32,000 nucleotides of DNA from Dickeya solani IPO 2222 (GCF_001644705.1 NZ_CP015137.1:1560001-1592000); one strand, 5' to 3'. Shown: positions 1 to 24,150, counted from the first letter of the stretch. Numbers and translations are program-made. Notes: generated by a model not told the origin, from the letters alone.

Positions 1-230
1 GAAATCGAGAAAAATAGCGGGTCAAAGCTATCGATATCACTTAATGCCCCCAGCCACTTACAATATATCTTGCCGTCTTTGCTACGGTCAGTATCGAAAT
101 AGTGGTCGACGTCCCAACGCGCCTTAGGGACTTCACGAACGGCGTTGCGTCCATCCGCTAAGTTGTCCCAGTATTGATCCAGGTTTTCCGCATCGGGATA
201 GCGGCCCGACATGCCGATGATGGCAATTTT
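1..230 (-). other. PKS domain: N-terminal part of a further KS (continues off-window)
   Basis: Translation QVEKIAIIGMSGRYPDAENLDQYWDNLADGRNAVREVPKARWDVDHYFD..., a typical KS N-terminus, in frame with the 3920 start. Confidence 0.8.
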
Positions 231-3200
231 CTCGACCTGCCGGTTAATAACCCTGGCATCGTCTGGCATCGCCGCAGATACCGGGGCGGCCAACTTTTGT
301 GTATCCCGGGATAAATCCTCATGCTCCGGAACACAAGTTGAAGTGGCCGCGACCGGCTTTGGGGACAGCGTTACTCCATCAGGCTGGGTCGCAATATATT
401 CAGCCAAAACATGAACATTCGGATAATCGTACAAACGGGTGGCAGAAAGATGAGTTCCCAGCTGCTTGTTAATCTCATTGATCCATTCAGCGCCGATAAT
501 TGAATCCAGCCCCAACTCCGAGAATGTTCGATTGTGCAGGATTGCTTCTGGCGCAATGTAAAGCGCATCGGCCAGGCTGGTTTTCAGTAGCTGAGTTATC
601 TCTGTTACCAGCTCATTCTGAGCTGCTGATATAGGGGCAGCTTGTGGAGAATGGGTAGTTTTTGACGAATGGTTCGCTTGTGACGCATGGATTGCCTGTG
701 GCGTATGGTTCGCCTGTGGCGCATAGAAAGTTGCGCTGCTCTGTTCAGCGGCTATCTTCTTATCTTCATGCTGGAACGCAGCCCCGGTATTGTATGTTTC
801 CGGCAAGTGTTCATCCGCTGCTTCACTCTGCCCCCCATTGAGTACAACAAACTGTGCCAGCTGGCGAACACTGGAGTAATCATATAAACGAGTGGCAGAC
901 AACGAGCTTCCCAGTTGTCGATTGATTTCATGAACCCATTCAGCTCCGACAATCGAGTCCAGCCCCATCTCGGCGAAGGAGCGATCAACATGAATATCCG
1001 ACTCTGGAGAGCACAGCGCCTGGGCCAAACTCACCCGTAATTTTTCGATAACACTCGCCAGAGAAACGCCGCCATTCCTTTGTTCTGGGTGAAGGGCGCC
1101 ATTACCGTTTGTTGCTTTGACTCCGTTTATTCCCCTGGCGCTACGTGTAATCTGGGTATCCACCGCACCGCCATTTATGTCATGGCTTCGGTGAATATCA
1201 GCCTTCTTGCCGTTCCACCGTTCCGCTGCTGATACCGGCGTCTCGCTCGGCCCAGCTGACGGGCTAGCCTCTCTCTTCAGCTCCAGCGGCTGCAAAGTCA
1301 CTTTTCCAGAATCATTAACTTTTACAGAACGATCAGCTTTTACAGAATCGGGCGTTGGCTGTTCAACAGCCATTTCCAGTTCTGGTTTATGCCGGGTCTC
1401 TTTGATCCAGTAACGCTTACGGTCAAACGGATAGGTTGGCAGCGCCAAACGTGAGTAACGCTGACCTGCGTATAATTGCAGCCAGTCAACCGATCTCGTC
1501 TCAACCCATACCTGGGCAATTTTTGTCCACTGCCGGGTCTGCCACCAGCGCTCAATATCCAGAATATCAATGCCTGGTAAACGGCCAGATTCATCACAAT
1601 TGACAAAAATAGTCCCCTCACTGGCTGCAGCCTGCGGATCCCTGGAAATTACGGCCAGTTGACGCAAAAGCGATGCAACATCTTCGGCAACGAACGCGAC
1701 TCTGGCATCCATCGCATCCCGTCCGGTTTGCAGCGTGTAGGCAAATTGTCTGAAGTGGCTTTCTACATGAGCTGAATTTTCAGTGACATAGTGCATCAGA
1801 TGTTGCGCATAGACCCGCAACCTTTCGCTGTTTTTTGCCGATAGAACGATAATCTCCGGCTCATGCTCACGCGACGGAACCTTGTCAGGTTCCTGACGGT
1901 ATTCTTCAATGACCAGATGAACATTCGATCCGCCAGCGCCGAAAGAACTCACGCCGGCGCGTAAAGGCTGCTCAGCATATCCGATTGTCGGACGTTGCCA
2001 TGTCTGCCCCTCCTGGAGTACATAAAACGGGCTATCCTCCAGTTCAAGTAATGGGTTCAGCTTCTGGCAGTGTAGCGACTTGGGCAAATATTCATCCCGC
2101 ATCGCCAGCAGAACCTTTATGACACCGGCAACTCCGGCGGCACTTTCCGCATGCCCGATGTTCGATTTAACCGAACCTAAAGCACAATGTTTGACCACGG
2201 CTTTCCCTGAGTTAGCCGCTGGATTAAGTCCATGCTCCTGATAAAGATCGTTAAACGCCATTTTCAGGCCATTGACTTCAATAGGATCGCCTAGCGGCGT
2301 CCCGGTTCCATGGCACTCAATATAGGTAATGCTACGGGGGTCAACCCCGGACTTCATATGCGCATCGCGGACAAGCTGAGCCTGAGCATTCGGATTGGGA
2401 GCCATCAGAGACGTTGCCGCCCCACCATGATTCTCCGCCGAGCCGATAATCACACCGAGAATATTGTCTCTATCAGCCTGTGCATCTTTCAGTTTTTTCA
2501 GCAGCACGACGCCAACCCCTTCCCCACGGGCGTAACCATTGGCATCTTCAGAGAAAGTCTTACACCGTCCATCCTCGCAAATCATCTCTGCCTTACTGTA
2601 CAGAATATGCATTTTCGGACTCAGGATCAGATTGGCGCCACCGGCAATCGCCATTTCACAATCACCGTGCTGAATGCTCATCACCGCACGATGAATCGCC
2701 ACTAAAGAGCTTGAACACGCGGTATCGATAATTTCACTGGGGCCATGCACATCCAGCAGATAAGAGACGCGGTTCGGACAAAACATATGAGGAATCGCCG
2801 TTAGCTCCACAATATCGCGGGGCTGAGCGTTCAGTACGGTTTCTGCATAATCCTGTAAATTGATGCCGGCAAAGACTCCGACCTTTTTTCCAGCTAATGA
2901 TGAGGGGGCATAGCCGGATGACTCGATGAGTCGCCAGGTCGACTCCAGAAACAGTCGGTGCTGGGGATCCATGGTCTGCGCTTCACGGGGAGAAATGCCA
3001 AAAAATGCAGGATCGAACTTATCCACATCCTCAATAAAACCGGCATATTTAACATTGGTAAATTCACCGTCTTTAGGATTACCGTAAATGGCCTGCCAAT
3101 CCCAGCGTTCTCGGGGAATTTCGCTGATACAGTCCTGGCCCTGATAAAGATGACGTTGCAACTCTTCAACCGAAGAAGACTGGGCAAACATCCCATCCAT

Positions 3201-3920
3201 CCCGATAATGGCAACAGGTTCATAATTTCCGCCGAACTGATTTGCCTCGGTTTTGTTTGTCTGCTGGTGTTTATCGCTCGTCGAATGGAACCGATCGCGC
3301 TTTTGATTAAGTCGGTAGCTTCTCGCCATCAGCTCCCGAATCTGTCTGGCTGATGTTGTACCCGACGATGATGTTGTACCCGAAGACGATGTTGTACCCG
3401 AAGACGATGTTGTACCCGAAGACGGCGCTGGCGATCCGACAACGGCCGTCTGCCGAACGTCTTTTCGGGGTACATACCTGGCAGGCTCTCGGCCATCGTT
3501 GACGGGCTGACCATCATAGCGTTGCGCGACTTCCGGACCGAAGCGCTTGATGATGATATCTGTCAGTTCATCAATGTTTCTGGCTTCAAAGAAAATAGCG
3601 GCAGAAAGAGACACCCCCAGCGAGTCGGCAATACGTCCCATGATTTCTGTGATTACAATCGAATCAACACCATAGGTTGATATTTTTTCTTCTCTGTCAA
3701 TTTTTGCCGCCGGCAACTTTAATATCGCAGAAAAAATACCCAGTATGTCTTGCAGCAGTATCTCGCGGTAATCTCCACCGTTAACCTCAGAAAGCGGACT
3801 GTCCAGGGCAGTATCGGAAACCGTTTGCGAATGTTCCACGGCAGACTGCATCAGCTCAGCCTCCAGAATTTTCCGGGCTGACTCGTGTAAGTCTCGGGTT
3901 CTGTTCTCTTTGCCTGTCAT
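1..3920 (-). CDS. trans-AT type I polyketide synthase, N-terminal ~1306 codons (3' end off-window): ACP-KS-ACP-ACP-KS(partial)
   Basis: Minus-strand frame from ATG 3918-3920 (6 nt after the FMO stop) stays open to nt 1. It is absent from the ORF track because its stop lies off-window. Own translation: MTGKENRTRDLHESARKILEAEL... Motifs in order: YGVDSIVITE (ACP, Ser codon 3660-3662); (SSGTTS)x4 linker; IDTACSSSLVAIH (Cys codon 2715-2717), ECHGTGTPLGDP and SNIGHAESAAG (KS); GLDSIVGAEW (Ser 954-956) and GLDSIIGAEW (Ser 501-503) (ACPs); IAIIGMSGRYPDAENLDQYW (next KS). Confidence 0.9.
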   Translation of the reverse strand, partial: MTGKENRTRDLHESARKILEAELMQSAVEHSQTVSDTALDSPLSEVNGGDYREILLQDILGIFSAILKLPAAKIDREEKISTYGVDSIVITEIMGRIADSLGVSLSAAIFFEARNIDELTDIIIKRFGPEVAQRYDGQPVNDGREPARYVPRKDVRQTAVVGSPAPSSGTTSSSGTTSSSGTTSSSGTTSARQIRELMARSYRLNQKRDRFHSTSDKHQQTNKTEANQFGGNYEPVAIIGMDGMFAQSSSVEELQRHLYQGQDCISEIPRERWDWQAIYGNPKDGEFTNVKYAGFIEDVDKFDPAFFGISPREAQTMDPQHRLFLESTWRLIESSGYAPSSLAGKKVGVFAGINLQDYAETVLNAQPRDIVELTAIPHMFCPNRVSYLLDVHGPSEIIDTACSSSLVAIHRAVMSIQHGDCEMAIAGGANLILSPKMHILYSKAEMICEDGRCKTFSEDANGYARGEGVGVVLLKKLKDAQADRDNILGVIIGSAENHGGAATSLMAPNPNAQAQLVRDAHMKSGVDPRSITYIECHGTGTPLGDPIEVNGLKMAFNDLYQEHGLNPAANSGKAVVKHCALGSVKSNIGHAESAAGVAGVIKVLLAMRDEYLPKSLHCQKLNPLLELEDSPFYVLQEGQTWQRPTIGYAEQPLRAGVSSFGAGGSNVHLVIEEYRQEPDKVPSREHEPEIIVLSAKNSERLRVYAQHLMHYVTENSAHVESHFRQFAYTLQTGRDAMDARVAFVAEDVASLLRQLAVISRDPQAAASEGTIFVNCDESGRLPGIDILDIERWWQTRQWTKIAQVWVETRSVDWLQLYAGQRYSRLALPTYPFDRKRYWIKETRHKPELEMAVEQPTPDSVKADRSVKVNDSGKVTLQPLELKREASPSAGPSETPVSAAERWNGKKADIHRSHDINGGAVDTQITRSARGINGVKATNGNGALHPEQRNGGVSLASVIEKLRVSLAQALCSPESDIHVDRSFAEMGLDSIVGAEWVHEINRQLGSSLSATRLYDYSSVRQLAQFVVLNGGQSEAADEHLPETYNTGAAFQHEDKKIAAEQSSATFYAPQANHTPQAIHASQANHSSKTTHSPQAAPISAAQNELVTEITQLLKTSLADALYIAPEAILHNRTFSELGLDSIIGAEWINEINKQLGTHLSATRLYDYPNVHVLAEYIATQPDGVTLSPKPVAATSTCVPEHEDLSRDTQKLAAPVSAAMPDDARVINRQVEKIAIIGMSGRYPDAENLDQYWDNLADGRNAVREVPKARWDVDHYFDTDRSKDGKIYCKWLGALSDIDSFDPLFFSI
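390..615 (-). other. PKS domain: ACP (second of a tandem pair), Trp at +6 from the phosphopantetheine Ser
   Basis: ELVTEITQLLKTSLADAL...FSELGLDSIIGAEWINEINKQLG...LYDYPNVHVLAEYIA; Ser codon 501-503. Confidence 0.85.
669..722. repeat. 3 x 18-bp imperfect in-frame tandem repeat in the inter-ACP linker
   Basis: atggttcgcttgtgacgc / atggattgcctgtggcgt / atggttcgcctgtggcgc; minus-strand translation APQANH-TPQAIH-ASQANH. Confidence 0.85.
845..1070 (-). other. PKS domain: ACP (first of a tandem pair), Trp at +6 from Ser
   Basis: VSLASVIEKLRVSLAQAL...FAEMGLDSIVGAEWVHEINRQLG...LYDYSSVRQLAQFVV; Ser codon 954-956. Confidence 0.85.
1900..3221 (-). other. PKS domain: KS (canonical Cys-His-His)
   Basis: EPVAIIGMDG...DTACSSSL (Cys 2715-2717)...GSAENHGG...ECHGTGTPLGDP...SNIGHAESAAG...SSFGAGGSNVHLVIEEY. 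Confidence 0.9.
3352..3423. repeat. 4 x 18-bp near-perfect in-frame tandem repeat encoding (SSGTTS)4 in the ACP-KS linker
   Basis: gatgttgtacccgaagac repeated at 3370, 3388 and 3406 (identical), with a variant copy at 3352. In the PKS frame it reads SSGTTS x4. Confidence 0.95.
3546..3758 (-). other. PKS domain: N-terminal ACP of the downstream PKS (no Trp flag)
   Basis: LQDILGIFSAILKLPAAKIDREEKISTYGVDSIVITEIMGRIADSLGVSLSAAIFFEARNIDELTDIII; Ser codon 3660-3662. Confidence 0.85.
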
Positions 3921-3926
3921 CGTTGT

Positions 3927-5231
3927 CTACCTTCCATTGAGTACTTCACGGTACTGCGCCAATAACTTGAGGAACTTCCACAGATCAACTTCCCACTGAT
4001 GCCGGAAAGATCCGATGTAGTAGTTCTGCCCCAAGTCAGGATCCTGTTCTTTTTTCATCCGGCTAAAATCGTGCAACCCTTTGGCTTGTAAGAAGTAAGC
4101 CTTGAGATAGTCCACAACAAACAGACCATGAGAGCGGGCGGAAACACCGAGTCCGGTGGCAGAGTTGATGTAGCCGACAAATAAGAGGTTATCGAAGTTT
4201 TTGGGGACAATATGTAAGAAGCAATCGGGAATACCCTGCTTCATTTCCAGATATTTATTATCCAGAAACGGAAAATGGCGGTTATATCCTGTCGCATAAA
4301 TAATGGTATCGACTTCAATTTGTGAACCGTCTTCAAAGGTCACCGTCTGCCCTGAAAAAGCGCGCACATCTCCCTTAGGTTGAATATCGCCGTGACCAAT
4401 AAAATACAAAAGTTGCGAGTTCATGATTGGATGAGAAGCATCCAACGGATAATCCGGCTTTTTCAAGCCGTAATCCGTACCGTCATAACCGGCAAGCTTA
4501 AAAACCTGCTGTATATAAGCCAGCGTTTCTTCGCGGGTTTTAAATTTATTGCCCAGCCCTTCCATCCATCTCGGCGTCGGCATGCCATTGATAAATTTAG
4601 GCTGATAGTAATAACCACGGCGTGTACTGTGGTAAACAGCCGAACAATGATGAACCGCATCAACCGCAATATCGCAGCCGGAATTGCCGGCGCCGATAAT
4701 CAAGACCCGCTTCCCCTTGATGCGCTCCGGTGTCCGGTAATCGATAGAATGCATGATGTCACCGGCGAAGTGGCCGGGATAGGCAGGCTCAGGATAACGG
4801 CCTTCCCGCTGCATACCGTTGCTGACCAGCACAAAAGAATAGAACTTTCGCTCCCCTGTCGATAATTCAACCTGCCAGCCATCTGCCTGCGGTTCGATAC
4901 GGGTAACCGCAACATTGAAACGGGCCTTTTCATACACCCCAAACGTTTTCGCATAATCACAGACATACTGATGCATCAGTTTATGGCTGGGATAATGAGG
5001 GTAGTCTTCCGGCATGGGAAAATCTGGATACTGGGTATTAACCTTCGGCGAGATCAGATGTAGTGACGGATAGGTACGGCCACAGCGGCTGTCAGCATTC
5101 CATACTCCGCCAAAGTCAGACTCAGCTTCATACAGATCGTAATCGATACCGGCCTGGTTCAGTTCCTTACCGAGGCTGACACCGTAAGGGCCACCACCGA
5201 TAATGCATACTCGTTTTCCTTGTACATCCAT
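3927..5231 (-). CDS. FAD/NADPH-dependent class B flavoprotein monooxygenase (FMO-type; candidate Baeyer-Villiger oxygenase acting on ACP-bound intermediates, OocK-like)
   Basis: 434-aa ORF. GGGPYG (FAD Rossmann fold), FAGDIMHSIDY (FxGxxxHxxxY FMO signature), IIGAGNSGCDIAVD (NADPH fold), ATGY near the C-terminus. Sandwiched between two PKS genes with 63-nt and 6-nt gaps. Confidence 0.9.
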   Translation of the reverse strand: MDVQGKRVCIIGGGPYGVSLGKELNQAGIDYDLYEAESDFGGVWNADSRCGRTYPSLHLISPKVNTQYPDFPMPEDYPHYPSHKLMHQYVCDYAKTFGVYEKARFNVAVTRIEPQADGWQVELSTGERKFYSFVLVSNGMQREGRYPEPAYPGHFAGDIMHSIDYRTPERIKGKRVLIIGAGNSGCDIAVDAVHHCSAVYHSTRRGYYYQPKFINGMPTPRWMEGLGNKFKTREETLAYIQQVFKLAGYDGTDYGLKKPDYPLDASHPIMNSQLLYFIGHGDIQPKGDVRAFSGQTVTFEDGSQIEVDTIIYATGYNRHFPFLDNKYLEMKQGIPDCFLHIVPKNFDNLLFVGYINSATGLGVSARSHGLFVVDYLKAYFLQAKGLHDFSRMKKEQDPDLGQNYYIGSFRHQWEVDLWKFLKLLAQYREVLNGR

Positions 5232-5294
5232 GAATGAAATCCTTTTAACGTACTGGCTATCCGTACTGTTCGTTCGTCAGTAAGACCTTTTCGA

Positions 5295-8200
5295 TCACGC
5301 CTCAGACGGCTCAAGTGTGAGCAATGCGTCTTCTTTCGCCATTTTTAAGTTCCTGAGCCACAGACACAGCACACCCGACTCGTCGTACAACCTCAGGTCG
5401 TACCCCGGAAGATCGCCGGTGATAATCAAAGGTTCGTGCCCTACAGGCGTAGGAGAGATATAAACCATCACTCGTTCTGTTATCGGCTTAAAGGCGATGA
5501 TCGAATCCAGAGAGAACGGATACCACTGGTTGCGCCCTGTCGCCTGGGGATGACAATACTGGTTTAGTGCGCAAAGTAACTGCCAGCAGGTAGTCAGCAG
5601 GACCGGCCGGAAAGTCGGCACATTCAACTGACGGGGCAGTTCGGCAAGGGAATTGAATGTCACCAGCAACTGCTTACCATCAAAATCGACTTTTTCGATC
5701 AAAGCCTGATTCTTCAGACCGTCTTCATCGAATATCCGTCTGATTTGATGGGTTGTCTGATGGTTATGAGAGGCTTCCAGCTGCTTTTCCAGTTCCCGGA
5801 TATCCAGCGTGTCGCCCCCGCCGCCAGCAGTAGTGTTCAGGACAATTTGCCCAAAATTATGAGTCACGGATTCACCCGCTTTCTCAGTCACGCACTGGAA
5901 ATAGAGGCCATCATCTTCCCGGGAGATATAAGTCTGAATATGACCATTGAGGGCATCCTGCATACGGGCAGGCTGCCCCCACAGGATATAATTCAGTTCG
6001 GCAGTATGTTGCGGGGGCGCCATGTTTTCCCGGGTTGCCTGTTCCCAGGCACATCGTGCCGACTCCAGCAACAAGAGTCCAGGGAGTTGCCCCTGGGCGG
6101 CAATCACACCTGCCGCCATCATGTTCCCATAAGCGGAAAAATCGCCCGGAACATTAACTAACGCCTGAGCCGGCAACGTCTGTTGAAGCCCTCTGACGGT
6201 TTCTTCGGCCACCACGCTATTGCCGTGCGAAAACGCGGGGTGATCGGCAATGGAAACGGAAGACGCTGGACCAGAAGCGTCCGTCGTATCCGAAGAGAAA
6301 GCCGTCTCATCCGAAGCTATCGGGGAATGATCCGTATGCATGGTCGTCAGGTCGACCCAATAACGTTCGCGGGCAAAAGGGTACGTCGGCAGAGAAACCC
6401 GCTTGGGTCTGAGTGATGGCGCCACACTGGAATAGAGGATCTCCCAGTCGATATTCATGCCTTTCACCCATATATCCAGAAGCTTGGTAAATTTACCTTT
6501 ACTGGCCCATGCCTGAATCAGGTCATGCATATCTTCATCGACATCGAATACGGACAACGCATCACGATGCAATTTACTCTTTCCCTGATAGAGTAAATCG
6601 ACGGTCTGCTGCTCACCGGCAAGAACAGCTGAAAGCTTACGTTGCAATTCATCAAGAGTGTGGGCAACCAATCCCAAACGCTCATTCATCGCTTCACGTC
6701 CGGTTTGCAGGGTATAAGCCAGTGAGTGAAGGTATGCTTGCGCATGCCCTGCACTCTCTCCTTTCGCCTCTATCCGATTCGCATATTCGTTCACATGAGC
6801 CAGCAGATTGGCGGTCATCTGTTTGAGCTGTACATCATTTTTCGCCGACAACGGAATCAGTGCCGGATCGCGGGATAAATATTCTTCCGCAGAGATTTTC
6901 CTGGCCGATGGTTCCATCGCAGATAGCCCCTCAGTCGGGAATTGCTCAATGACTAAGTGGGCATTGGTTCCACTGAATCCGAAAGAACTCACGGCAGCCT
7001 GACGTCGCTGACCGGATTCCACTATCCAGTCTCTGAGTTCCCGGTTGACATAAAAAGGTGTGCCGTCCAACGTAATGTGCTCATTAAGTTCCTGATGATG
7101 CAGCGTTGGAGGAATCTGTTGGTTCTTCATTGCCAGCAACACTTTGAGCACCGAAGCGACCCCGGCGGCCCTCAGCGTGTGGCCGATGTTGCTCTTCACC
7201 GACCCCAGTGCGCAGTAGTTCTCTTTTTGGGTAAAGAGAGAGAAGGTCTGTTTTAGACCCACGACTTCCACAGGATCCCCCAGTTTGGTTCCTGTTCCGT
7301 GCGTCTCTACATACTGTATTTGCTCAGGATCGATACCAAAGCCGGTGTATACCGCCTGCTCCAGGCGAGACTGAGCATTGCCGTTCGGGGCCGTAATCCC
7401 ATTACTTTTACCATCCTGATTCACCCCCCAGCCTTTGATCACGCCGTGAATAACATCCTGATCTTCAATCGCATCTTCCAGGCGTTTTAACAGCACCACA
7501 CCAACGCCTTCTCCGGGGACAAAACCATTGGCTCGCTGATCAAAAGTAAAGCAGCGGCCATCTTCCGACAGCATTCCGGCCTTGCTGGTCATAATGTGCA
7601 TGCTTGGGCCAGCCAACACGGAGACCCCACCGGCCAGGGCCAGATCGCTATTTCCCAGCACCAGGCTGTCACAGGCAGATGCAATCGCCACCAGAGATGA
7701 CGAACAAGCCGTATCAATAGCCAGGCTCGGCCCCTGTAAATCCAGATGGTAGGCAATTCTTGCCGCTAAAATGGAAATCGCATTTCCCATAAAGGCTTGT
7801 GCATTGAGTTCCATTCCAAAGCGCGCGTCGTAGTCACCCTCCCCGCAACCGACGAAAACGCCGCACCGACTACCAGATAAATCAGCAGGGTTGTACCCAG
7901 CATCTTCAATACACCCCCAGCACGCCTCAAGAAATACCCGCTGCTGCGGATCCATCATCTCGGCTTCCCGGGGAGAAATATTAAAAAACAGCGGATCAAA
8001 CTTATCTGCATCTTCCAACACGCCCATCCATTTGGAATAGGTTTTGCCGGGTGTGTGACGATTACGATCGAAAAAGTCTTCAATCGCCCAGCGTTCCGCC
8101 GGAACTTCTGAAATACAATCGTCCCCTTTGCTCAAATTCTCCCAGAACTGTTGCAGATTCTTAGCCTTCGGGAACTGACCAGACATACCTACGATAGCAA

Positions 8201-11200
8201 TCGCCTGGCGCCTGGCAGGAGCCGGGCTTATAGCCAATTCTGTGTTTGCGGCGCAGGGGGTCGCCACTGCCTGTGGCTCGACACGTTCGGCCTTCAGGAG
8301 CGTCTGTTTGGCACTCGGTATCGATGTCTGAGACAGACCAGCCATAAGCTCAGCGCCGGTGTCAGAAGCAGAGGGCTGGGTCAATGTTGCTTCACCAAAA
8401 ACCGCAGAATCAGGAAGCGAAGATTGGCCAAGCCCGGAACAACGCTGAACCAGCAAGGCGAACTCTTGTAACGTTGGATGGCTGTATACTTCGGCAGCAT
8501 TCAGGTCCAGCCCGTAGTGCTGGTTGATCTTTCTGATCCAGGTGACACCGGTAATCGAATCCAGACCCAAATCGACAAACGCAACATTCGGATCGATCGC
8601 CTGAGGTTTGATTTGCAGCTCTTGAGACAGCGTTTGGCTTAAAAATTCCAGAATATTGGCTGGGGGCGTATTCGCGCGTTTCCGGGCATCAACCACATTT
8701 TCCCGAACATTGCTCCCAACAGTGACGTTGGATAACCCCACCGGTGCGGGTACAAAGCCGGGTGTCATCTCTGCCTCTATTTCCCGGCGTTCACCGGTTG
8801 CAGTATTTAGCCCCGCTTCTTTGATCACCAGCCCAGTGAATACTTTCAGACTGGGATAGCTGTACACGTCGGCAGCATTGAGAGTAAGCCCGTATTCCGC
8901 GTTGATGTTTCTAATCCAGGTGACGCCGGTAATCGAGTCCAGACCGAGATCAACAAAGGGTTGTTCACTTTCAATTTGTTCGGTTCTGATTTGCAACTCT
9001 TCTGCCAGCATGCGACGTAACAGGGAATAAACCTGTTCAAACACAGCATTACTGTCTTGTTCTTTCTGCACGGCACTCGTTGAATCCAACGCTTTCGTGC
9101 CCTGGACTCCAGAAACGCGCTGGTGACTGGCCTGCTCCTGACCACTGATTTGTTCCCGGTGGCTGAGCATCCCCTGGTTAAAATGCTGTTGGATACGAGC
9201 CAGCACCTCCTGATTGCCGACAAAAGTATGCTCATGCATCCGAAGCTCCAGAACATAATTCGCTTCGACTTGATTTCTGATGCGCCGCGAACGCTGTGTC
9301 TTCCTGGCAACCAGCTCATCTCGGGACATTCGGGCCATGGCATTGGCAGCCGCCAGAGCAAATGGCAGCACTTGAGCACGTTCAAGTACCGGGCTTTTGA
9401 GCCCGCGGGCCTGAAGTTCAAAACCTTTATACTCTTTGGCGGTAAACAGAACTTCTCTGGCAATATCCAGACCCAGGCGGCAGGGAAGAATGAGGGTTGA
9501 TCCGGCTCCCGGAGTGAATCCGTAGCGCATATAAGGACTGTAATAGACGCTTTCCTGACTGAAAATCGCATCGTCACAAAACATGCCCACAGCCCAGCCG
9601 GGACCAATACCATGCCCTTGCATGGCTGCGATCACCGGAATATCGCACTCCAGCGGTAAGGCAAAGATTTTCTCATCGGTAAACTTTGCGCTTCCCTTCT
9701 GGATCGCCTGCAACGTTTCCATCGTACCGCCGCTGGCAAAGTAGTGGTCATACCCGGTAAGCACCACCACTTTATAGGCCTGATTCTGGTGAATATGAGC
9801 AAAGATCTCTTCAAAACCGGCAACAAAGGCTTTCGAGAATTTATTACGACTTTCCCGCTCACACAACCGGACCAGCAGAACACCATTGTCATAGACTTCA
9901 GCGTCGATAACCGGAGAATTGAGCGCCACCTTGCGCGGCTTGCCCTGAGGTAATCCCAATTGCCCGGCCTTAAATGCCTGTAACCAGCTTTCCGTCAGTA
10001 CAGCGGATTCATGAGATTCAGGTACGGCCCTCTCGACAGCAAAAGCGAGCGGCCTCTCAGTCAACGCAACAGACTGACCGACAAGATTGGCTGCCAAATG
10101 TTGCTTCAATTGAATGAGCGCCTCTCTGGGCACGCTCGCCAGTTCCTGCGCCAGCTTCAGGCTTTCCTCGGCAACCTCCGTCGAAGGGAAAACCGGCATC
10201 AGCAAGCCCAGTTCTTTCAGATGGCGCCCTTCAATTCCCCGCCAATCGGTCAGCAATACCTGAGCCGCGGATGGTGTAAAACGCTCGCTAAGAAGATGAT
10301 ACAACTGCTGCGATACCATCTGTTTCTGGCTGACATACTGATAGCGGCCCGTGGTACTCAAAACAGCAAAATCGCACAGGCAGACAAACAACCACGCATA
10401 ACCTTTGCAATCGCCCGGTACAGAAGCGATCACTGGAAACGGCAACTCCAGAACGGTCCGATACAGCGCTTCTTGCAAAAACAGTTCGGTATCATCTTCG
10501 AGAGCGGGAAGAAAATGGTGTTCATCACCGCTGATCAGCAGAACGCTGATGTCCGTCCGATTTTTTATTTCATTGAGTAGACGGTGAAGATGACTGAGCC
10601 GGGCCATTCCCGGAGAATCCTCTATTAGCGAGCTGCCATTAGCATCATGAAGCCGAAGGCAAAATATGCCCTGGCCTTCATCCGTCAAACGAAATGGAGA
10701 GTTCTCAACGTTTAGATTCGAAACCTGAAATGGCGCTGCCACCTGAAATGCTTGCAGAGAAGCAAGTACCCGCTTGCCTTCTGCGCGTTCACCGGTTTTT
10801 TGACTGTCAGCTACGTCCAATACCGATAGCTCGGCATCTGCCGACATAACATCCGCCGACATAACATCTACCGACATAACAGTGGAGGCTCGTGCTGCCT
10901 GGCTATTCAGGGTATCCGGTGCCGAGTAGCGAGCGTCCTCTGGCAACCAGTACCGGTCTTGCTCAAAAGGATAAAGCGGCAAACCTGCCACACGTTGGCG
11001 CGGGGTCTGATACCATGCCGCCCAGTCGATTTGTCGACCTTCGAGCCATTGTCCGGCCAGCCCCCGTAAATCACGTCGCTGAATAGATGTATCGATGTCT
11101 GCCTGTTGCCGCCTGCTGTTACCTTTGTTTTTCTCTCCTTGCGCAACAGTGCCGGTAAGATAACTTTGAGCAAACGTATTCCGGTTTAGATAATCTTCCA

Positions 11201-14200
11201 GCCCAGTGAGTATCTCAGCATCGCTTTTTCCGGCAACAGCCAGGCGATGGCCTAAAGATTCACGTCCCAGTTGTAACGTATAAGCAATGTCTTTTAACCC
11301 ATTGGTTGTCAGATGCGGATGCTGCTGAATATACACTTTCAGTTGCCGGGCTAAGACATGCAATTGCGCTTCACTTCTGGCAGAAAGCAGTAATAGCGCG
11401 GGCTCAGGATCCAATTCCGGGAATTGGCTTGCTGGCGACACTTCCGACGGTCGGAATTCTTCAAGCACCATATGGACATTGGTCCCGCTAAAGCCGAAAG
11501 AACTCACTGCTGCGATCCGCTTTCCCTGAGAATTCGGTTGCCAATCCTTAACCTGGGTATTGACGACAAAAGGCGTGTCTTCAAAGGGAATCAGTGGATT
11601 CGGCTTTTCATAGTTCACGCTGGGAGCCAACTTACGATGCTTGAAAGACAGCAGGAGCTTGATCAGCGCACTGACCCCAGAAGCATGGACACAATGGCCG
11701 ATGTTACTTTTTACCGATCCAATTGCACAAAAACCGGTACGCTGGGTCTGTCTGCGGAAGGCATCTGTCAGGGCGGTGATCTCGATTGGATCACCTAGCT
11801 TCGTTCCGGTGCCGTGAGCTTCAATATAGGTCAGATCGTCAGCACTGAGATTCAGCTCATCGTATACCTGGCAAATCAACTCGGTCTGCGAGCGACTGCT
11901 TGGCGCTGTAATCCCGTTCGTCTTACCATCCTGGTTCATGCCTGAGCCTTTGATCACACTATAAATGTGGTCTTTATCGTCAATTGCATCCTGCAACCGC
12001 TTTAGGATCACGACACCAACCGCTTCGCCCGGCACAAAACCATCAGCCCGGTGATCAAAAGGCTTACAACGCCCATCGGCCGACAACATCCCGGCTTTGG
12101 CACACAAAATGTGGAAGTTGGCCGTGGTATGGATTGAAACACCACCGGCAATTGCCATATCGATAGCGCCGTTTCTCAAACTTTCACAAGCCAAATGTAC
12201 CGCAGCCAATGACGATGAAGAGGCGGTATCGATCGCCATCGCCGGGCCTTTCATGTCCATAAAATAGGCAATCCGGGCAGCCAAAATCGATGAGTCGTTC
12301 CCCATAAATGAAGAGGCATCGAGTGGGATATCATGCTGTCGCAGATTAGCCTGATAGTCCCCGGCATCGGCACCGGCATAAACGGCCCATTTTTTGTCTT
12401 TTATCTCACGGTTGGCATATCCAGCATCTTCCAGCGCGTGCCAACTTTCCTGTAAAAACAAACGTTGCTGAGGGTCCATTTGCCTGGCTTCTTTGCCGGA
12501 AATTCCAAAAAAAGAAGCATCAAATTTATCAATATCTTCAATAAACCCGCCCCATCGGCCATAGGTCTTATTTGGCTTCGTACGGTCTTCATCAAAATAG
12601 GCAGCAATATTCCAACGCTCTGCCGGGACTTCGGAAATACAATCGCCACCGTCCAGTAACAAGGACCAGAACGCATCGACATTCACCACGCCGGGGAAAC
12701 GTGCGGACACTCCGATAACGGCAATATCCCCCTCATAACCCCCCTCATAGATAGGCCGGGCCGTCTTGCTGGTATCATCCGTTTTTTGCAGGATTTTTCT
12801 TGTCTGGTTGGCTTCGCTGCGTTGTACCGTATCATCCTGAATATCGATTTCCCGCCACTCCGACTGCATACGCGTCACAATAGCATTCTGATAATTTTCC
12901 ATCAGATAGCAGCGTAAATCATTCACACAGCCATAATCGAAGAGCACCGTACTGGGAAGTTTTATCGCAAAAGCGCCGTTCAGTTTTACAACCAAATTAA
13001 TTGCTGCAAAGGAGTCAACGCCATACTCAGAAAATGCTTTAGCCTCGTCGATATCAACCTTTTTCTTCAGACATTCAAGCAAGTTCTTCACGAGCACTGC
13101 GTTGATATAATTCAGGATGGCGTCTTCGTCGATGTCGACGGATTGCGGCACAATCTCTTGTTCTGTCTGCTGATACTCTGCCTGTTCATATTCCGATTCA
13201 GACCGGAGAGTCGGTAACCGCCCACGATGATCACCGATCTGTTGCATCAGGATCGTATCTGTCGACGGCAACCTTTGCTGCGAAGCTGTTGCAGACTCAG
13301 ATTGTGCATTTTCATTACTTGAAGCAATCGTCTGTGATGAGGGAGTAAAAACCAGTTCGGCTAACACAGTGGCTGGTATGGTGTAAGTCCACACGCCGGA
13401 AGATTCTGATACATACTGGATTGAGTCGATACTGCGCAGGAATATTTCAGCCGGTTTGTTTTTATCACTTGCCGCAAATCGGATTTCAACGGTCTCTTTC
13501 TTCCGTTCCAGAGCTTTCCGACCTAGTACATTCAGCATCTGATATTCAACACCACGCCCCAGCACACGACAACTGAGCAATCCCCCATCAACGGATAGCA
13601 CATTTTCCCGCTCGGAGAAAAAGCACAAACCGCAAATACCATAATCGCCGAATCGATCAGCGACACGGATACTCAGACAACCCTGTTCTGGGCTCTGAAT
13701 TCTGGCAAGAATATCGGCAACGGTGTATGGCGCTTTGACAAAGTTAAACTGATTGGTGCGATGCGTCAGTTGAGATAGTCTCTCAGCCTGGTCTTGCGTC
13801 GCTGGCTGGATTGTAATTTCAAGTTCCAGTCCGCGAATGAACGCCTCCATACTGAATGCACTCTGACGGAACGCTTCACGCCGAACCTGCTCCTGATACA
13901 TGTGGGTACGTTTTGCGTCTTCATTCGTTTGGCGATGCACCTGATCAAAGCCCCAGACATGAGCAAGGAATCCCGGAATATCGTTACTATTTTCAGGCAA
14001 TCGCAAACTTAATACCTGTGGGCAGCCAGCAGAAACTTCAGCGTATTCAATCGGACTATCATCCAGAAAAATAAAGCTATCCAAGCCCAGGTTTAGGTTT
14101 TTTGCCAGACGTTGAAGATTATCGGACTTGGCATTCCAGTTGATTTTTGTGTCAACAAAATCATGCCATTGCAAAATCATGTCGTCACGACTGTCAAATA

Positions 14201-16847: not shown

Positions 16848-17653
16848 CTCGACCTCCTTGTCACCAATATGTTTAAACCATTTTGGTTAAATCTCGAAAG
16901 CTTCGTTCCTGAAAGTTTCGTTACTGACGTATTTAAAAAATATAATAAAAATTCAAATAAAATATTGGAAACAAAAATATAGACTGAGATGAATATTAGA
17001 AAACCCAAAGGAAACTCCGGGTCTAAAAAGAAAACTCTAGGTATGAAATGAGATCATACTTTATTAATTGAAAACATATGCGTGTTACCAGCGTGTTATA
17101 GATGTGTTTTTTACTCAATGGGAAAATTATTACAAATTATTTCTAACATTATATTAAATTATTTTTCCCCAATAAAAACAGACGAATAACCGCTCAAAAT
17201 AATAGCCTCTTTTGAGGGGAACAGGCCGAGTTGAGCGATTTGGCCAATCGCCACAAAGATATATCATCAACCGGACTGAGCGATGCTGAATATCGCCCGC
17301 GCCGAACGGCGCCTGAGACAGAAAAAGCTCCACAAAACATTCGACAAGAGCCATGCACACAGGCTCATAGCGATGTTGATACTGCATCGGGGTAACCGTG
17401 TTGGCGATGTTCCAGGATGCTCCACTGCGCCCTGTTATTACAGCTTGAATGGCTGAATAAGGTTCAGCATTTTATGACAATCGTTAGTCTCTTCCCCGGA
17501 GAGGGCATAGAAGATGAGTGGCCTGTTGAGTATTAAGTTGGTGTTCAGCTTTTATTGATAAGAACACTGATTGACACGCCTTTCTTCGCTGATATAGAGT
17601 TGCTTATAAGTTAAAGAGATAAAATCGCATTCATTTATCCCAAAAGAAATATC

Positions 17654-17779
17654 TATATCCAAAATAATTCGAGTTGCAGGAATACAGCGATGCAACTAAT
17701 CCCCTGGAGCTTACAAAAGTGAGTGACTGGGATGGATAAGGAAAGTCAACGCCCTGCAACGTGAGACATGATGGGTATA
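17654..17779. repeat. ERIC/IRU element (enterobacterial repetitive intergenic consensus, MITE-like), ~126 bp
   Basis: tatatccaaaataattcgagttgcagg...cccctggagcttacaaaagtgagtgactggg...cctgcaacgtgagacatgatgggtata. The core matches the ERIC consensus behind the classic ERIC1R/ERIC2 primers (CCCCAGGAGCTTACAT / AAGTAAGTGACTGGGGTGAGCG), and the ends are inverted repeats. Confidence 0.75.
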
Positions 17780-17930
17780 ACCATTAAGGAAAATAATCAA
17801 AACAACCGGTTAGATTCTCGAATTTCATTATCAGTCGGTAATTAGTTTGATAGTTTTATTTGTAGATGAATTTTCTCTACCTGTAGTCATTTTTAATTAA
17901 GTCAGTCATGCACAAGTTAAGGAGCATCAT

Positions 17931-18182
17931 ATGAGCCACAAAAGCAAGGAAGATATTTTCAATATTATCGTGCATAACTTACTGGAAATCCTCCCATATC
18001 TGGATACCAGTACCATTGCTCTAGAACAGAGCATGAAAGACTTAGGAGCCAATTCAATTGACCGGGCTGATGTTCTGCTCTCTAGCATGGAAACCCTCGA
18101 TCTCATGTTCCCTCTCCATGAAGCCGGAGACCTCAAAAATATCGGAGAATTAGTGGATTTCCTGCACGCCAAAGCACAGTAG
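17931..18182 (+). CDS. discrete acyl carrier protein of the beta-branching cassette (donor ACP, AcpK/CurB type)
   Basis: 83 aa; AAGGAG Shine-Dalgarno sequence 6 nt upstream. MKDLGANSIDRADVLLSSME phosphopantetheine site (Asn-Ser instead of Asp-Ser). Immediately precedes KS(Ser)-HMGS-ECH1-ECH2. Confidence 0.85.
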   Translation: MSHKSKEDIFNIIVHNLLEILPYLDTSTIALEQSMKDLGANSIDRADVLLSSMETLDLMFPLHEAGDLKNIGELVDFLHAKAQ

Positions 18183-18245
18183 TCATCCACACTATGCTGA
18201 TCTTCTGGCGAATATGGCCTTTCAGTGAATCAAAGCAGGATGCGT

Positions 18246-19502
18246 ATGAAGAACAATGTCGTTGTGACCGGCTTAGGCGTAGCAGCTGCGAATGGAATCG
18301 GAATACCAGCTTTTACCCAATCACTGAAAACAGGTATCAGTGGAATCAACAGGCATACCAACGAATTTCCAGAAATCAAGGCAAGCCTGGCTGATTACAA
18401 CTATAAGGCGGCATTAGAGTCTTTATCTCTCACTCAGGAAGAGCGAAAAGATGCTTTGCGCCTGGGGGCCAGAGTGCCGTTGAGTACCCGGGTATCACTC
18501 GCAACTGCACTTGAAGCCTGGCATGATGCTTTTGCCGACGGATGCCCTTACCCTCCAGAACAAAGGGGAATCATCATTGCCGGGCATAACGTCGAGCAAA
18601 AATATCAATATCAAATCCGACAATCCTTCATCGACCAACCCGAATTTGTTCCTGCAAGTTATGCGCTGTACTTTATGGACACAAATCAGTTAGGTCTGAT
18701 CAGCGAGCTTTTAACTATCCGTGGAGAAGGCTGTACTGTTGGTGGCGCTTCAGCCAGCGGAAACTCCGGCATTATCCAGGCATACAGGCAAGTCGCATCA
18801 GGAATCACCCAGTCTTGTCTGGTCGTCGGAGCAATGGCAGATTTATCACCTCCAGAGATACAGGCATTCAAAAACAGCGGCGCCCTGCTGACCCAAAGCG
18901 ACTCTAGTGATCCCGCACAGCTTTGTCGCCCCTTTGATCAAGATCGAAAAGGGTTTGTTTACGGTCAAGGATGTGCCTGTCTGTTGCTGGAAAATGAACA
19001 AAGTGCCCGTGAACGCCACGCACCGATTTGGGGACGAATTCTTGGTGGCAGTATCTGCCTGGATGCCAATCGAGGCAGTAATCCAAGTTGTGAAGGTGAG
19101 TCTCGGGTGATGCAACAGGCGCTGTTGACTGCCTGTTGTCCCTATGATTCGGTCGACTACATCAATACGCATGGCACCAGTTCACTTATGGGCGATGAAA
19201 CTGAAATCGCCGCCATCAAGCGTGTTTTTGGCCCTTACCATCAACGGATTTGGCTCAATTCAACCAAAAGCCTCACGGGGCACTGCCTGTATGCCGCCGC
19301 TGCCGTAGAGACGGTAGCCACATTGATACAAATGAAAGAGCGCTTTCTTCACCCAAACTTGAACCTGGAAACACCGATCAACGATGAATGCCGTTTTGTC
19401 GGGCAACATGCCCAACACCAGGAAATCAAAGTCGCTTTGAATAATGCCTTCGGTTTCGGCGGCATTAATACCTGTGTTGTGTTGGCGCATGCCAGCCAAT
19501 AG
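18246..19502 (+). CDS. free-standing KS-like malonyl-ACP decarboxylase (KS with Cys->Ser; PksF/CurC type)
   Basis: FabF-like fold. TVGGASASGNSG, where STACATG is expected (Ser codon TCA 18750-18752); NTHGTSSLMGD and SLTGHCLYAAA histidines retained. The ORF track starts at GTG 18225. I prefer ATG 18246 (MKNNVVVTGLG) because AGGA sits 5 nt upstream. Confidence 0.85.
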   Translation: MKNNVVVTGLGVAAANGIGIPAFTQSLKTGISGINRHTNEFPEIKASLADYNYKAALESLSLTQEERKDALRLGARVPLSTRVSLATALEAWHDAFADGCPYPPEQRGIIIAGHNVEQKYQYQIRQSFIDQPEFVPASYALYFMDTNQLGLISELLTIRGEGCTVGGASASGNSGIIQAYRQVASGITQSCLVVGAMADLSPPEIQAFKNSGALLTQSDSSDPAQLCRPFDQDRKGFVYGQGCACLLLENEQSARERHAPIWGRILGGSICLDANRGSNPSCEGESRVMQQALLTACCPYDSVDYINTHGTSSLMGDETEIAAIKRVFGPYHQRIWLNSTKSLTGHCLYAAAAVETVATLIQMKERFLHPNLNLETPINDECRFVGQHAQHQEIKVALNNAFGFGGINTCVVLAHASQ

Positions 19503-19533
19503 CGTTCACCTAATTTAGCATAAGAGGGACCTT

Positions 19534-20796
19534 ATGATTTCTGTTGGAATTGAAGCGATAAACGCATTTTGTGGTACCAGCTACATTAATGTCAGAGATC
19601 TGGCTCAACACCGCCAGCTAGATATGTCCCGTTTTGATAATCTCTTGATGAAGCAAAAAACGGTGAGTTTGCCTTGTGAAGATCCTGTCAGCTTTGCCGT
19701 CAATGCAGCAAAACCCATTGTGGATTCGTTAAGTGAGCAAGAAAAAAACAGCATTGAACTGTTGATCACCTGTACAGAATCAGGAATCGACTTCGGCAAA
19801 TCAATCAGTACCTATGTTCACCACTATCTGGGGCTAAAGCGAAACTGTCGCTTGTTCGAATTGAAAACTGCCTGTTACTCCGGTGTTGCCGGCTTGCAAA
19901 TGGCTGTCAATACAATCCTTTCCCAGACATCTCCCGGCAGCAAAGCTTTAGTTATTGCCACAGATATGACGCGCTTTATTCTGGAGGAAGAAAACGGTGA
20001 CCATACCAGCCAGGACTGGTCTTTTGCCGAGCCGAGCGGTGGCTCCGGCGCTGTTGCCATGCTGGTCAGCGACTCCCCTCACGTTTTTCAGATCGATGTG
20101 GGTGCAAACGGCTATTACGGTTATGAAGTGATGGATACATGCAGGCCTGTCCCGGATAGAGAAACCGGCGATTCGGATCTGTCATTACTGGCTTATCTGG
20201 AATGTTGTGAAAAGGCCTACCTGGAGTACGAAAAACGCGTTGCTGGCATTGATTATGTCAACACATTTGGTTATCTGGCATTCCATACGCCTTTCGGTGG
20301 AATGGTCAAAGGCGCTCACCGTAACATGATGCGTAAACTGATTCGCGCCACCCCCCAGGATACAGAAGCCGATTTTAATCGTCGCGTGGCTCCTGGGCTG
20401 AATTATTGTCAGCGCGTCGGTAATATCATGGGGGCAACATTAGCACTTTCCCTGCTCAGCACCTTGTCGAATGCGGATATTCAGTCACCACAGCGGATTG
20501 GGTGTTTTTCTTACGGTTCTGGATGTTGTTCCGAGTTTTTCAGTGGTGTCGTTACCCCTGAAGGCTGTCAGCGTGTAAGACAGCTGGAAATCGGGGCTCA
20601 TCTTGACAGACGCCGCGAACTGACGATGAGTGAATATGACGCGCTGCTTTACGGCAACCATGGGGTCCGCTTCGGTACCCAAAATGTCACTCTGGACCTG
20701 AGTCATTTCCCCCAGATCCATTCCGCTACCCAGAAAGCCCGTCATCTCGTACTGAGCCGAATCAACGAATTTCACCGTGAATATGAGTGGGTCTGA
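19534..20796 (+). CDS. HMG-CoA synthase homologue (PksG/CurD-type beta-branching HMGS)
   Basis: 420 aa. ELKTACYSGVAGLQ (catalytic Cys), LAFHTPFGGMV, CFSYGSGCCSEFFSG. AGAGGGA Shine-Dalgarno sequence upstream. Confidence 0.92.
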   Translation: MISVGIEAINAFCGTSYINVRDLAQHRQLDMSRFDNLLMKQKTVSLPCEDPVSFAVNAAKPIVDSLSEQEKNSIELLITCTESGIDFGKSISTYVHHYLGLKRNCRLFELKTACYSGVAGLQMAVNTILSQTSPGSKALVIATDMTRFILEEENGDHTSQDWSFAEPSGGSGAVAMLVSDSPHVFQIDVGANGYYGYEVMDTCRPVPDRETGDSDLSLLAYLECCEKAYLEYEKRVAGIDYVNTFGYLAFHTPFGGMVKGAHRNMMRKLIRATPQDTEADFNRRVAPGLNYCQRVGNIMGATLALSLLSTLSNADIQSPQRIGCFSYGSGCCSEFFSGVVTPEGCQRVRQLEIGAHLDRRRELTMSEYDALLYGNHGVRFGTQNVTLDLSHFPQIHSATQKARHLVLSRINEFHREYEWV

Positions 20797-20798
20797 CA

Positions 20799-21575
20799 AT
20801 GCCATCTTATCAAACAATCCGGTTAAGGCAGGAAGGGGCCGTGTTGTACTTGCAGATATACCGACCTGAAGCCAGTAACACCATCAATGAAAACTTTGCA
20901 ATAGAGTGCCGGGAGGTTATCCGGCAATACCGGGATAAAATCAGTATATTAGTCGTTGAAGGATTACCTGAAGTCTTTTGCTTTGGCGCTGATTTGCAGG
21001 CAATAGAGCAAGGCAACATTGCCGGCAACGGCAGTAGTGGTCGTCCCCAGGATCCAGAGATCCTTTATGAGGTCTGGCAAGATATGATGAGCGGACCTTA
21101 CATCAGCATCGCTCATGTCAGAGGCAAAGCCAACGCGGGAGGAATAGGTTTCGTTGCCGCCAGTGATATCGTCATTGCAGACACTGGAGCCATGTTCAGC
21201 CTGTCTGAAATGTTGTTCGGTTTGCTGCCTGCCTGTGTACTTCCCTTTCTGGTACACAAGATAGGGAAACAAAAAGCTCACTATATGACGTTAATGACAA
21301 AACCCGTGTCAGCAGAACAGGCTCACAACTGGGGTTTAGTCGACGACTACGGTGACAACAGTGACTTGATTCTCAAAAAGCACATACAACGGCTCAACTG
21401 CTTATCAAAACGCGCCATTGCTCGCTACAAATCATACATGAGTGAGCTGGATACTATTACCCGAGATCAAAAACCTGCAGCCCTGGCTCTGAATGTGGAA
21501 ATTTTTTCCGATCAGGAAAACCTCAGCAAAATATCCCGTTACATCCAAACGGGAAAATACCCTTGGGAGGCATAA
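20799..21575 (+). CDS. enoyl-CoA hydratase/crotonase ECH1 (dehydratase, PksH/CurE type)
   Basis: VLYLQIYRPEASNTIN...EVFCFGADLQ...VRGKANAGGIGFVAASDIVIAD. ATG 20799 lies 2 nt after the HMGS stop; the ORF track's alternative start is GTG 20787. Confidence 0.85.
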   Translation: MPSYQTIRLRQEGAVLYLQIYRPEASNTINENFAIECREVIRQYRDKISILVVEGLPEVFCFGADLQAIEQGNIAGNGSSGRPQDPEILYEVWQDMMSGPYISIAHVRGKANAGGIGFVAASDIVIADTGAMFSLSEMLFGLLPACVLPFLVHKIGKQKAHYMTLMTKPVSAEQAHNWGLVDDYGDNSDLILKKHIQRLNCLSKRAIARYKSYMSELDTITRDQKPAALALNVEIFSDQENLSKISRYIQTGKYPWEA

Positions 21576-21580
21576 AGAGA

Positions 21581-22330
21581 ATGTCCACAAATGTCGTTGA
21601 TTTTCAGGAAATAGAGCCGGGTATTGTTCACATAAAAATGCAGGACAGGGCCCATAAAAACACGTTCTCCCGCGCATTGATCCACGAGTTGATCCAGATA
21701 TTCAAACATATCGAAACGTCAGAACAATATAAGGCGGTCATTCTGACAGGTTACGACAGCTATTTTGCTACAGGAGGAACCCAGGAAGATCTGTTTGCCT
21801 TACAGGAAGGAAAAGGAAAATTCACTGATACCAACATTTACAGCTTACCTCTGGAGTGCCCAATTCCGGTCATTTCCGCTATGCAGGGACACGCCGTCGG
21901 AGGTGGTCTGGTGATGGGGCTGTTTGCCGACTTTGTAATTATGAGTCAGGAAAGCATTTATACAGCCAATTTTATGAAATACGGCTTCACTCCCGGCATG
22001 GGGGGAACACTTATCGTACCCGAAAAACTGGGACTGGCTCTGGGACAAGAGATGTTGATGCTGGGTAATAACTATCGGGGTGAGGAGTTGAAGCGACGAG
22101 GAATTCCCTTTCCGGTTTACCCAAGGGAACAGGTTGCAGAAGCAGCCTTGTACAGCGCCAGGGATCTGGTCAAAAAGCCACGGACATCACTCATCACGTT
22201 AAAAGATCACCTGACTCAGCATCTTCGGGCTAAGTTACCAAAGTACACAGCACAGGAAGTCATCATGCATGAGAAGACCTTTTTTCAGCAGGAAGTCAGA
22301 CAAAACATCTCCAACTTATTCAGCAACTAA
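21581..22330 (+). CDS. enoyl-CoA hydratase/crotonase ECH2 (decarboxylase, PksI type)
   Basis: IVHIKMQDRAHKNTFS...VILTGYDSYFATGG...ISAMQGHAVGGGLVMGLFADFVIMS...FMKYGFTPGMGGT. ATG 21581 lies 5 nt after the ECH1 stop; the ORF track's alternative start is TTG 21563. Confidence 0.88.
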   Translation: MSTNVVDFQEIEPGIVHIKMQDRAHKNTFSRALIHELIQIFKHIETSEQYKAVILTGYDSYFATGGTQEDLFALQEGKGKFTDTNIYSLPLECPIPVISAMQGHAVGGGLVMGLFADFVIMSQESIYTANFMKYGFTPGMGGTLIVPEKLGLALGQEMLMLGNNYRGEELKRRGIPFPVYPREQVAEAALYSARDLVKKPRTSLITLKDHLTQHLRAKLPKYTAQEVIMHEKTFFQQEVRQNISNLFSN

Positions 22331-24123: not shown

Positions 24124-24150
24124 CTCCATGTAGAAACGACGAGCAGAAAC

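Follow-up and report, generated by a model that had tools for sequence, protein, structure and literature searches.

The window analysed here, a 32,000-nucleotide stretch of DNA from the potato pathogen Dickeya solani IPO 2222 (NZ_CP015137.1:1560001-1592000, with positions counted from its first letter), carries at 1-23055 the oocB / oocC-G / oocJ-K-L end of the ooc cluster, and it is nearly certain that this segment is the right-hand third of the D. solani cluster for the antifungal polyketide oocydin A/B (haterumalide). The polyketide synthases (PKSs) encoded there are of the trans-acyltransferase (trans-AT) type, and a complete beta-branching cassette is transcribed divergently from them. 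The cluster is already published for D. solani, and nothing in its recognition is new. An initial annotation of the window, made from the sequence alone, had arrived at an oocydin/haterumalide-type interpretation, which gene synteny, protein identities and domain order support.

Results

Open reading frames (ORFs) were listed and translated mechanically from the window, and the GTG start of oocF is that mechanical call. The published ooc cluster has three transcription units, namely oocA-B, the HCS cassette oocG-C, named for its HMG-ACP synthase (HMGS or HCS), and the divergent oocJ-W (PMC4552970). In the window, the cassette comprises five closely packed plus-strand genes at 17931-22330, divergent from oocJ-K-L on the minus strand (16847-3) and followed by oocB, a 202-aa minus-strand gene at 22447-23055. 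The initial annotation had taken the order PKS, flavin monooxygenase (FMO), PKS, together with an FkbH loader and a divergent HMGS cassette, as features of ooc; these are indeed the published organisation (PMC4552970), and the FMO gene, oocK, was found at 3927-5231 on the minus strand between the two PKS genes.

Within the species, the window is 100.000% identical to GCA_013339815.1 across 15,231 bp and 99.99% identical to CP017454.1 and CM001839.1. Its psd allele was found only on CP017454.1 in an exact-sequence look-up, and other members of the 90% clusters of the window proteins are named Dickeya solani. In D. solani assemblies, oocL is followed by the luciferase-like monooxygenase OocM (PF00296) and then by a 6897-aa PKS, of which the start was seen. 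The downstream part of a full ooc cluster, oocM-W, also comprises OocN, the halogenase OocP/Q, OocR/S and the trans-ATs OocV and OocW. The ooc cluster and antifungal activity have been reported for D. solani MK10, MK16, IPO 2222 and other strains (PMC4552970). Strains of D. solani show 100% conservation of the cluster, and deletion of oocL leads to loss of activity against ascomycete fungi (PMC10168573).

Beyond the species, all ten genes share order and orientation with Serratia marcescens MSU97, an oocydin A producer (PMC4552970), and with Serratia sp. NPDC078593, at 68-92% identity (gene by gene from tblastn, with OocJ compared by four-way alignment). Against MSU97, OocJ is 68% identical and colinear over residues 1-3848, OocK is 91% identical, the OocL N-terminus 70%, OocG 73%, OocF 81%, OocE 88%, OocD and OocC 84% each, and OocB, found at the same position, 71%. 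The initial annotation had named high-identity matches to Ooc proteins as the check on its interpretation, and such matches were found, both in the synteny with MSU97 at 68-91% and in the pairwise identity of 92% between OocK and SOD_c22890 of S. plymuthica 4Rx13. Between oocB and oocJ-K-L, with oocC-G in the middle, the genes of Serratia A153, 4Rx13 and MSU97 are ordered and oriented as in the window, and the architectures of OocJ and of the OocL N-terminus are identical. The D. solani cluster differs in that oocA, absent from all Dickeya clusters (PMC4552970), is missing, and in that OocJ has ~200 extra residues, which lie in linkers; homology with Serratia ends at oocB, and the flanks differ. 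In the four-way alignment, the differences between the D. solani and Serratia OocJ are linker indels of 10-20 aa only, and the methyltransferase (MT), FkbH, ketosynthase (KS) KS1, enoyl-CoA hydratase (ECH) and KS2 segments are 79-94% identical, with the catalytic domains put at 84-94%.

Among other Dickeya, the D. oryzae ZYY5 proteins are 82-97% identical to those of the window, and the cluster occupies the same insertion site beside orn and tRNA-Gly, while the D. ananatis locus has ~85% DNA identity to that of D. solani. When one genome per species was scanned for the loader region (1260 aa), loci were recovered with identities over the 1260 aa of 88% in D. oryzae ZYY5, 70% in S. marcescens MSU97, 69% in Serratia sp. 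NPDC078593 and 42% in the phormidolide-type PKS of Leptolyngbya PCC 7375. In a protein homology search with the OocJ N-terminus, no match exceeded 43% identity and no OocJ orthologue was among the matches listed (all <=2160 aa); giant PKS proteins may be missing from the index that was searched. The same search showed loaders built of dehydratase (DH), MT, FkbH and acyl carrier protein (ACP) domains to be widespread. An ooc-like locus was also observed on ENA ERZ25069286 contig_1 (920 kb), where the FMO is 80%, OocJ 56% and OocL 52% identical to the window proteins and a 7053-aa fused PKS follows; this could be a more divergent oocydin-type cluster.

These comparisons also bear on a different reading, namely that the window belongs to a new trans-AT cluster, of phormidolide/gynuellalide type or of pederin type with a PedG-like oxygenase, that shares only a module block with ooc. 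The first module block is common to ooc and phormidolide-type PKSs (PMC7930024): the phormidolide, leptolyngbyalide and gynuellalide PKSs share DH-MT-FkbH-ACP-KS(Ser)-ECH-ECH-ACP-ACP-KS with OocJ (PMC7930024), this loader and exomethylene block being common to the PKSs of Leptolyngbya PCC 7375 and Adonisia, and they have a related cassette ACP and KS as well. PedG is 61% identical to the window FMO, and in the pederin/diaphorin systems the FMO is likewise encoded between two PKS genes, after a KS and a pseudo-DH (PMC6174933). Yet phormidolide-type PKSs are 42-46% identical to OocJ and have no OocK-type oxygenase module; the cyanobacterial PKS, at only 46%, stops aligning after KS2 and goes on with sequence that has no aligned counterpart in OocJ, at the place where OocJ has its pseudo-DH, and the rest of the pederin/diaphorin assembly line is unrelated to ooc. 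Serratia ooc, in contrast, matches at 68-92% over all ten genes in full synteny, and oocL and oocM downstream are also as in ooc. Given the MSU97 synteny, the OocK identity with 4Rx13 and the match to D. solani assemblies, we consider a new cluster refuted, with virtually no probability left to it.

The PKS coding sequence of the oocydin-type cluster amounts to 15.47 kb in the window, in line with the ~15.5 kb of the initial annotation, and consists of oocJ (5295-16847, minus strand; 3850 aa) and the 5' part of oocL (3-3920, minus strand), which runs off the left window edge with 1306 of its 2540 codons visible. Pfam, NCBIfam and PDB sequence searches gave OocJ the order DH-MT-FkbH-ACP, KS1-ECH-ECH-ACP-ACP, KS2-pseudoDH, which agrees with the published descriptions (PMC4552970, PMC6174933), including that of DH-MT-FkbH-ACP as module 1 (PMC4552970). 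On the minus strand these domains are the DH (15993-16823; residues 9-285), the FkbM-type MT (14835-15422; residues 476-671; PF05050, and TIGR01444 at 90 bits), FkbH (13428-14384; residues ~822-1140; TIGR01686 at 294.8 bits, with a cut-off of 146.65 bits), the loading ACP (12915-13061), KS1 (11598-12728), a degenerate ECH (10080-10472; 47 bits, with PksI and CurF as top PDB matches), an ECH2-type ECH (9219-9887; ECH_1, 151 bits), tandem ACPs (8835-9023 and 8457-8645), KS2 (7095-8207) and the C-terminal pseudo-DH (5349-6131). The partial OocL reads ACP-KS-ACP-ACP-KS(partial) in Pfam, again on the minus strand, with ACP1 at 3555-3749 (residues 58-122), KS3 at 2067-3221, tandem beta-branching ACPs at 846-1043 and 393-590, and the start of KS4 at 3-230, where the window edge cuts it. 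In other D. solani assemblies full-length OocL has 2540 aa and ends in KS, ketoreductase (KR) and ACP.

Much of the initial domain inventory holds at these scores, including FkbH, the FkbM-type MT and two in-line crotonase domains, one strong and one degenerate. Its counts of five in-line KS and seven in-line ACP domains do not: we found four KS (two in OocJ, one complete and one edge-cut in OocL) and six ACPs (three in each protein), and the higher figures are reached only if the discrete KS and ACP of the cassette are added. A GLDSF motif at OocJ residue 921 was rejected as an ACP, as it sits within FkbH. Regarding the two hot-dog domains that were claimed, the N-terminal DH stands, while the C-terminal one goes unseen by Pfam and has only a modest PDB sequence match, to the dehydratase of a trans-AT PKS (5j6o, E 5e-7). 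Over the 5156 aa of PKS product there is no PF00698 (AT) match and no GHSxG motif, so that the in-line AT domains which the initial annotation had set against its own interpretation were not found by hidden Markov model search; the modules without AT carry RhiE-like and CurL-like post-KS linker domains. The window PKSs are thus of the trans-AT type, with modules lacking an integrated AT. No Pfam match to KR, enoylreductase (ER) or thioesterase (TE) was obtained in either window PKS product, as the initial annotation had it; for KR this is true inside the window, whereas a KR lies ~2.4 kb further left in the complete D. solani OocL.

The PKS linkers also contain tandem repeats, in frame and with units of 18 or 15 nt, as (GTTSSS)x4 at 3352-3424 in OocL and as (VMSAD)x3 at 10835-10881 and (MPPTT)x4.6 at 15630-15698 in OocJ. 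The repeat positions match sites where the Serratia OocJ is shorter, and the repeats likely vary in length between strains.

OocK (434 aa; PF00743, E 2e-49) is a flavin-dependent Baeyer-Villiger monooxygenase of the PedG/OocK clade. The nearest cluster representative in the FMO search is a D. ananatis protein (94%), and the 90% cluster of OocK includes 4Rx13 SOD_c22890, A153 AFX60333.1 and S. marcescens, as well as D. dianthicola, D. chrysanthemi, D. oryzae and Musicola paradisiaca; because Serratia and Dickeya OocK collapse into this one cluster, Serratia OocK was not listed in that search. The 4Rx13 enzyme converts beta-ketoacyl thioesters to malonyl esters in vitro, and the same work defined an oxygen-insertion module split over OocJ, OocK and OocL, with OocJ modules 1-2 building a cryptic starter that is retained in oocydin B (PMC6174933). 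All parts of this module are seen in the window: KS2 and the pseudo-DH end OocJ, the FMO lies between the PKS genes, and ACP1 starts OocL. As published for the oxygen-insertion module, the HxxxGxxxxP motif was not found in the C-terminal DH-like domain of OocJ.

The divergent cassette is complete, as claimed initially, with all five genes found on the plus strand. These are oocG (17931-18182; PF00550), an 83-aa donor ACP; oocF (18225-19502; NF005490, 559 bits), a free-standing decarboxylating KS with GASASG, in which Ser replaces Cys; oocE (19534-20796; PDB match to PksG, E 9e-192, and also to CurD), the HMGS with its catalytic Cys (ACYSG); oocD (20787-21575; PksH, 3hp0, E 5e-89), the dehydrating crotonase ECH1; and oocC (21563-22330; PksI, E 1e-98; CurF, E 5e-67), the decarboxylating crotonase ECH2. 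OocG reads GANS around the phosphopantetheinyl Ser, where GxDS is usual, and GANSIDRAD is shared by the homologues from Serratia, D. oryzae and Leptolyngbya. PksFGHI/AcpK of bacillaene and CurB-F of curacin have the same five-component order and catalytic signatures; ooc differs from them in that one cassette would serve two branching sites, with an in-line ECH2 acting at the first and the discrete ECH2 at the second. A Trp six residues after the phosphopantetheinyl Ser reportedly flags beta-branching acceptor ACPs (Haines et al. 2013). This Trp is present in two tandem ACP pairs, at OocJ Ser2638 and Ser2764 and at OocL Ser989 and Ser1140, and is missing from the other three ACPs examined, a distribution that fits two branching events from one cassette.

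At the position of the catalytic Cys, KS1 has Ser1543 (codon TCT, 12219-12221, minus strand) and reads DTASSSS, whereas KS2 and KS3 read DTACSSS; both catalytic His of KS1 are kept, with HGTGT and NIGH intact. The Ser recurs in D. ananatis, D. oryzae, both Serratia loci and ERZ25069286 contig_1, and also in Leptolyngbya, Adonisia, two acidobacterial metagenome-assembled genomes and a 6819-aa representative protein (P0347). It is therefore kept in every recovered homologue of the DH-MT-FkbH-ACP-KS-ECH-ECH-ACP block, in Proteobacteria, Cyanobacteria and Acidobacteria; Cys is found in two truncated contigs that carry this loader but do not show the sequence downstream of the KS. A KS1 search of protein representatives, in which summed scores put giants with many KS domains first and KS1 orthologues were not singled out, serves only as a census of ~445 KS motifs in 150 large PKSs. 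In this census 404 motifs have Cys and six a genuine Ser, and two of those six, one of them P0347, keep both His. No segment of OocJ is better conserved than KS1, which is 88-94% identical to its Serratia counterpart, and together with the conservation of the Ser across these blocks this is evidence for a selected substitution.

The N-terminal DH of OocJ keeps its His in HIVLDEPILP (residues 16-25; 16776-16802, minus strand), an HxxxDxxxxP motif that departs from HxxxGxxxxP in the Gly alone, and this is shared by Dickeya, Serratia and Leptolyngbya. The MT retains its DIGxNIG motif, and MT and FkbH are 79-88% identical to Serratia. From motifs and identities, the kept His and the conserved MT and FkbH would favour the more recent view of an active loader and argue against the 2015 suggestion of a non-functional loading module.

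Such departures from canonical motifs, in both DH-like domains and in KS1, might instead be taken as signs of a decaying, non-functional ooc remnant. In the same direction, the CM001839.1 draft has oocJ called as three ORFs, with two single-base gaps relative to the window, and D. ananatis has oocL called as two ORFs of 2088 aa and 406 aa, the second with KR-ACP; these splits could be assembly errors or real frameshifts. In the window, however, all ten ORFs are intact, the apparent DH and KS1 defects are conserved in proven producers, KS1 is exceptionally well kept as described above, and antifungal activity in D. solani strains depends on oocL (PMC10168573). We therefore reject pseudogenisation as extremely improbable.

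The intact ooc genes are separated by a divergent intergenic region of 1.08 kb (16848-17930, 38% GC) between the oocJ-W and oocG-C operons. In Serratia, PoocG and PoocJ fusions map to the oocG/oocJ intergenic region (PMC4552970), and the spacer should hold both promoters. It has 74-75% DNA identity to D. oryzae and no detectable DNA similarity to Serratia, though the proteins encoded on either side keep 73-88% identity. A promoter and terminator scan of the spacer gave matches no more frequent than in shuffled sequence. Differences in regulation between strains, which the literature describes, may stem from the divergence of this spacer.

The right border of the inserted region is marked by a tRNA-Gly(GCC) gene (24212-24287, minus strand; ARAGORN, and Rfam at 69 bits), the sole match in an Rfam scan, whose 3' end points at the cluster. 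Between the two lies an AT-rich junction (23056-24211) without an intact gene, and GC content changes from 48.8% in the cluster (1-23055) to 40.1% in the junction and 58.9% in the core flank. The adjoining tRNA 3' end and the deviant GC are traits of tRNA-associated islands. Small ORFs in the spacer and at the tRNA junction gave no family matches; the junction holds one of 62 aa (23935-24123), likewise without a match, and a hairpin terminator at ~24150-24180, just downstream of the tRNA. At the same junction, D. oryzae ZYY5 has ~2.8 kb of IS3-type and IS110-type transposase fragments. Core genes lie beyond the tRNA, namely orn (NF003765, 308 bits), rsgA (606 bits), psd, mscM (2006 bits) and epmA (571 bits). 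The cluster is consistent with a horizontally acquired trans-AT PKS locus beside tRNA-Gly(GCC), and horizontal transfer of ooc has been proposed (PMC4552970).

Discussion

Several points weigh against the assignment to an oocydin A/B cluster. The published evidence for oocydin A/B production in D. solani is genetic and from bioassays only (PMC4552970, PMC10168573), and the literature speaks of an 'oocydin-like molecule' (PMC10168573) rather than of a determined structure. The window does not reach the trans-AT genes, the halogenase genes or the distal end of the island, and it shows neither an integrase nor a direct repeat that would establish tRNA-targeted integration. In addition, the Ser of KS1 leaves elongation at module 2 unexplained by the textbook KS mechanism. 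The first of these points leads to the reading that the cluster is an ooc orthologue whose product in D. solani is a congener other than oocydin A and B. No D. solani structure is published in the literature examined (PMC10168573), OocJ has only 68% identity to Serratia, and the downstream PKS genes are fused differently, giving the 6897-aa product. On the other hand, the domain order in the window is identical to that in Serratia, with linkers alone varying in length, and Dickeya Ech703 is reported to make oocydin A (PMC4552970). On balance we consider a different congener improbable, and retain oocydin A/B as the expected product.

From the architecture of module 1 and the published proposal, its OocJ DH-MT-FkbH-ACP set would load a glycerate unit from 1,3-bisphosphoglycerate and convert it to a 2-methoxyacrylyl starter. 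Module 2, with KS1, two ECH and two ACPs, would add one malonate unit, and OocG, OocF, OocE and OocD together with the in-line ECH2 would install an exomethylene beta-branch on the Trp-flagged tandem ACPs. Module 3, formed by KS2 and the pseudo-DH of OocJ, OocK in trans and ACP1 of OocL, is predicted to elongate the chain to a beta-ketoacyl-ACP, into which OocK would insert oxygen by Baeyer-Villiger oxidation to give a malonyl ester. Further elongation would follow at module 4 (KS3 and two ACPs of OocL), where the cassette with discrete OocC would make the C17 methyl branch. Hydrolysis of the ester would then release oocydin A, removing the 'cryptic starter'. The malonyl units would come from OocV and OocW, trans-acting acyltransferases of ooc (PMC4552970) whose genes lie beyond the window. 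OocB (PF01810, LysE family) is a putative efflux protein, an exporter that Serratia can do without.

Records of the ooc cluster in D. solani go back to 2015, and its genetic link to anti-ascomycete activity dates from 2023. The practical value of the present analysis is that of a positive control, in which a natural-product family was correctly recognised from raw sequence alone.

The point that merits specialist attention is the conserved Cys-to-Ser substitution of KS1 in an elongating module. The published product logic calls for a C2 extension at module 2, as do the structures of oocydin B and haterumalide B. One explanation, which we put forward tentatively and hold to be more doubtful than probable, is that KS1 is a functional condensing ketosynthase working without a thioester acyl-enzyme intermediate. 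Two mechanisms would fit, one through an acyl-O-Ser intermediate and one in which decarboxylated malonyl-ACP attacks the acyl-ACP directly. Ser might be preferred here because the 2-methoxyacrylyl starter, an electrophile, might trap the thiol of a Cys. We did not find the substitution discussed in the literature examined, a body that extends to neither of the original cluster papers (Matilla 2012, Bertin 2016), where it may already have been noted. Since S. plymuthica 4Rx13 already serves as a PKS engineering platform (PMC11260071), the role of this Ser in the oocydin-type family is directly testable there.

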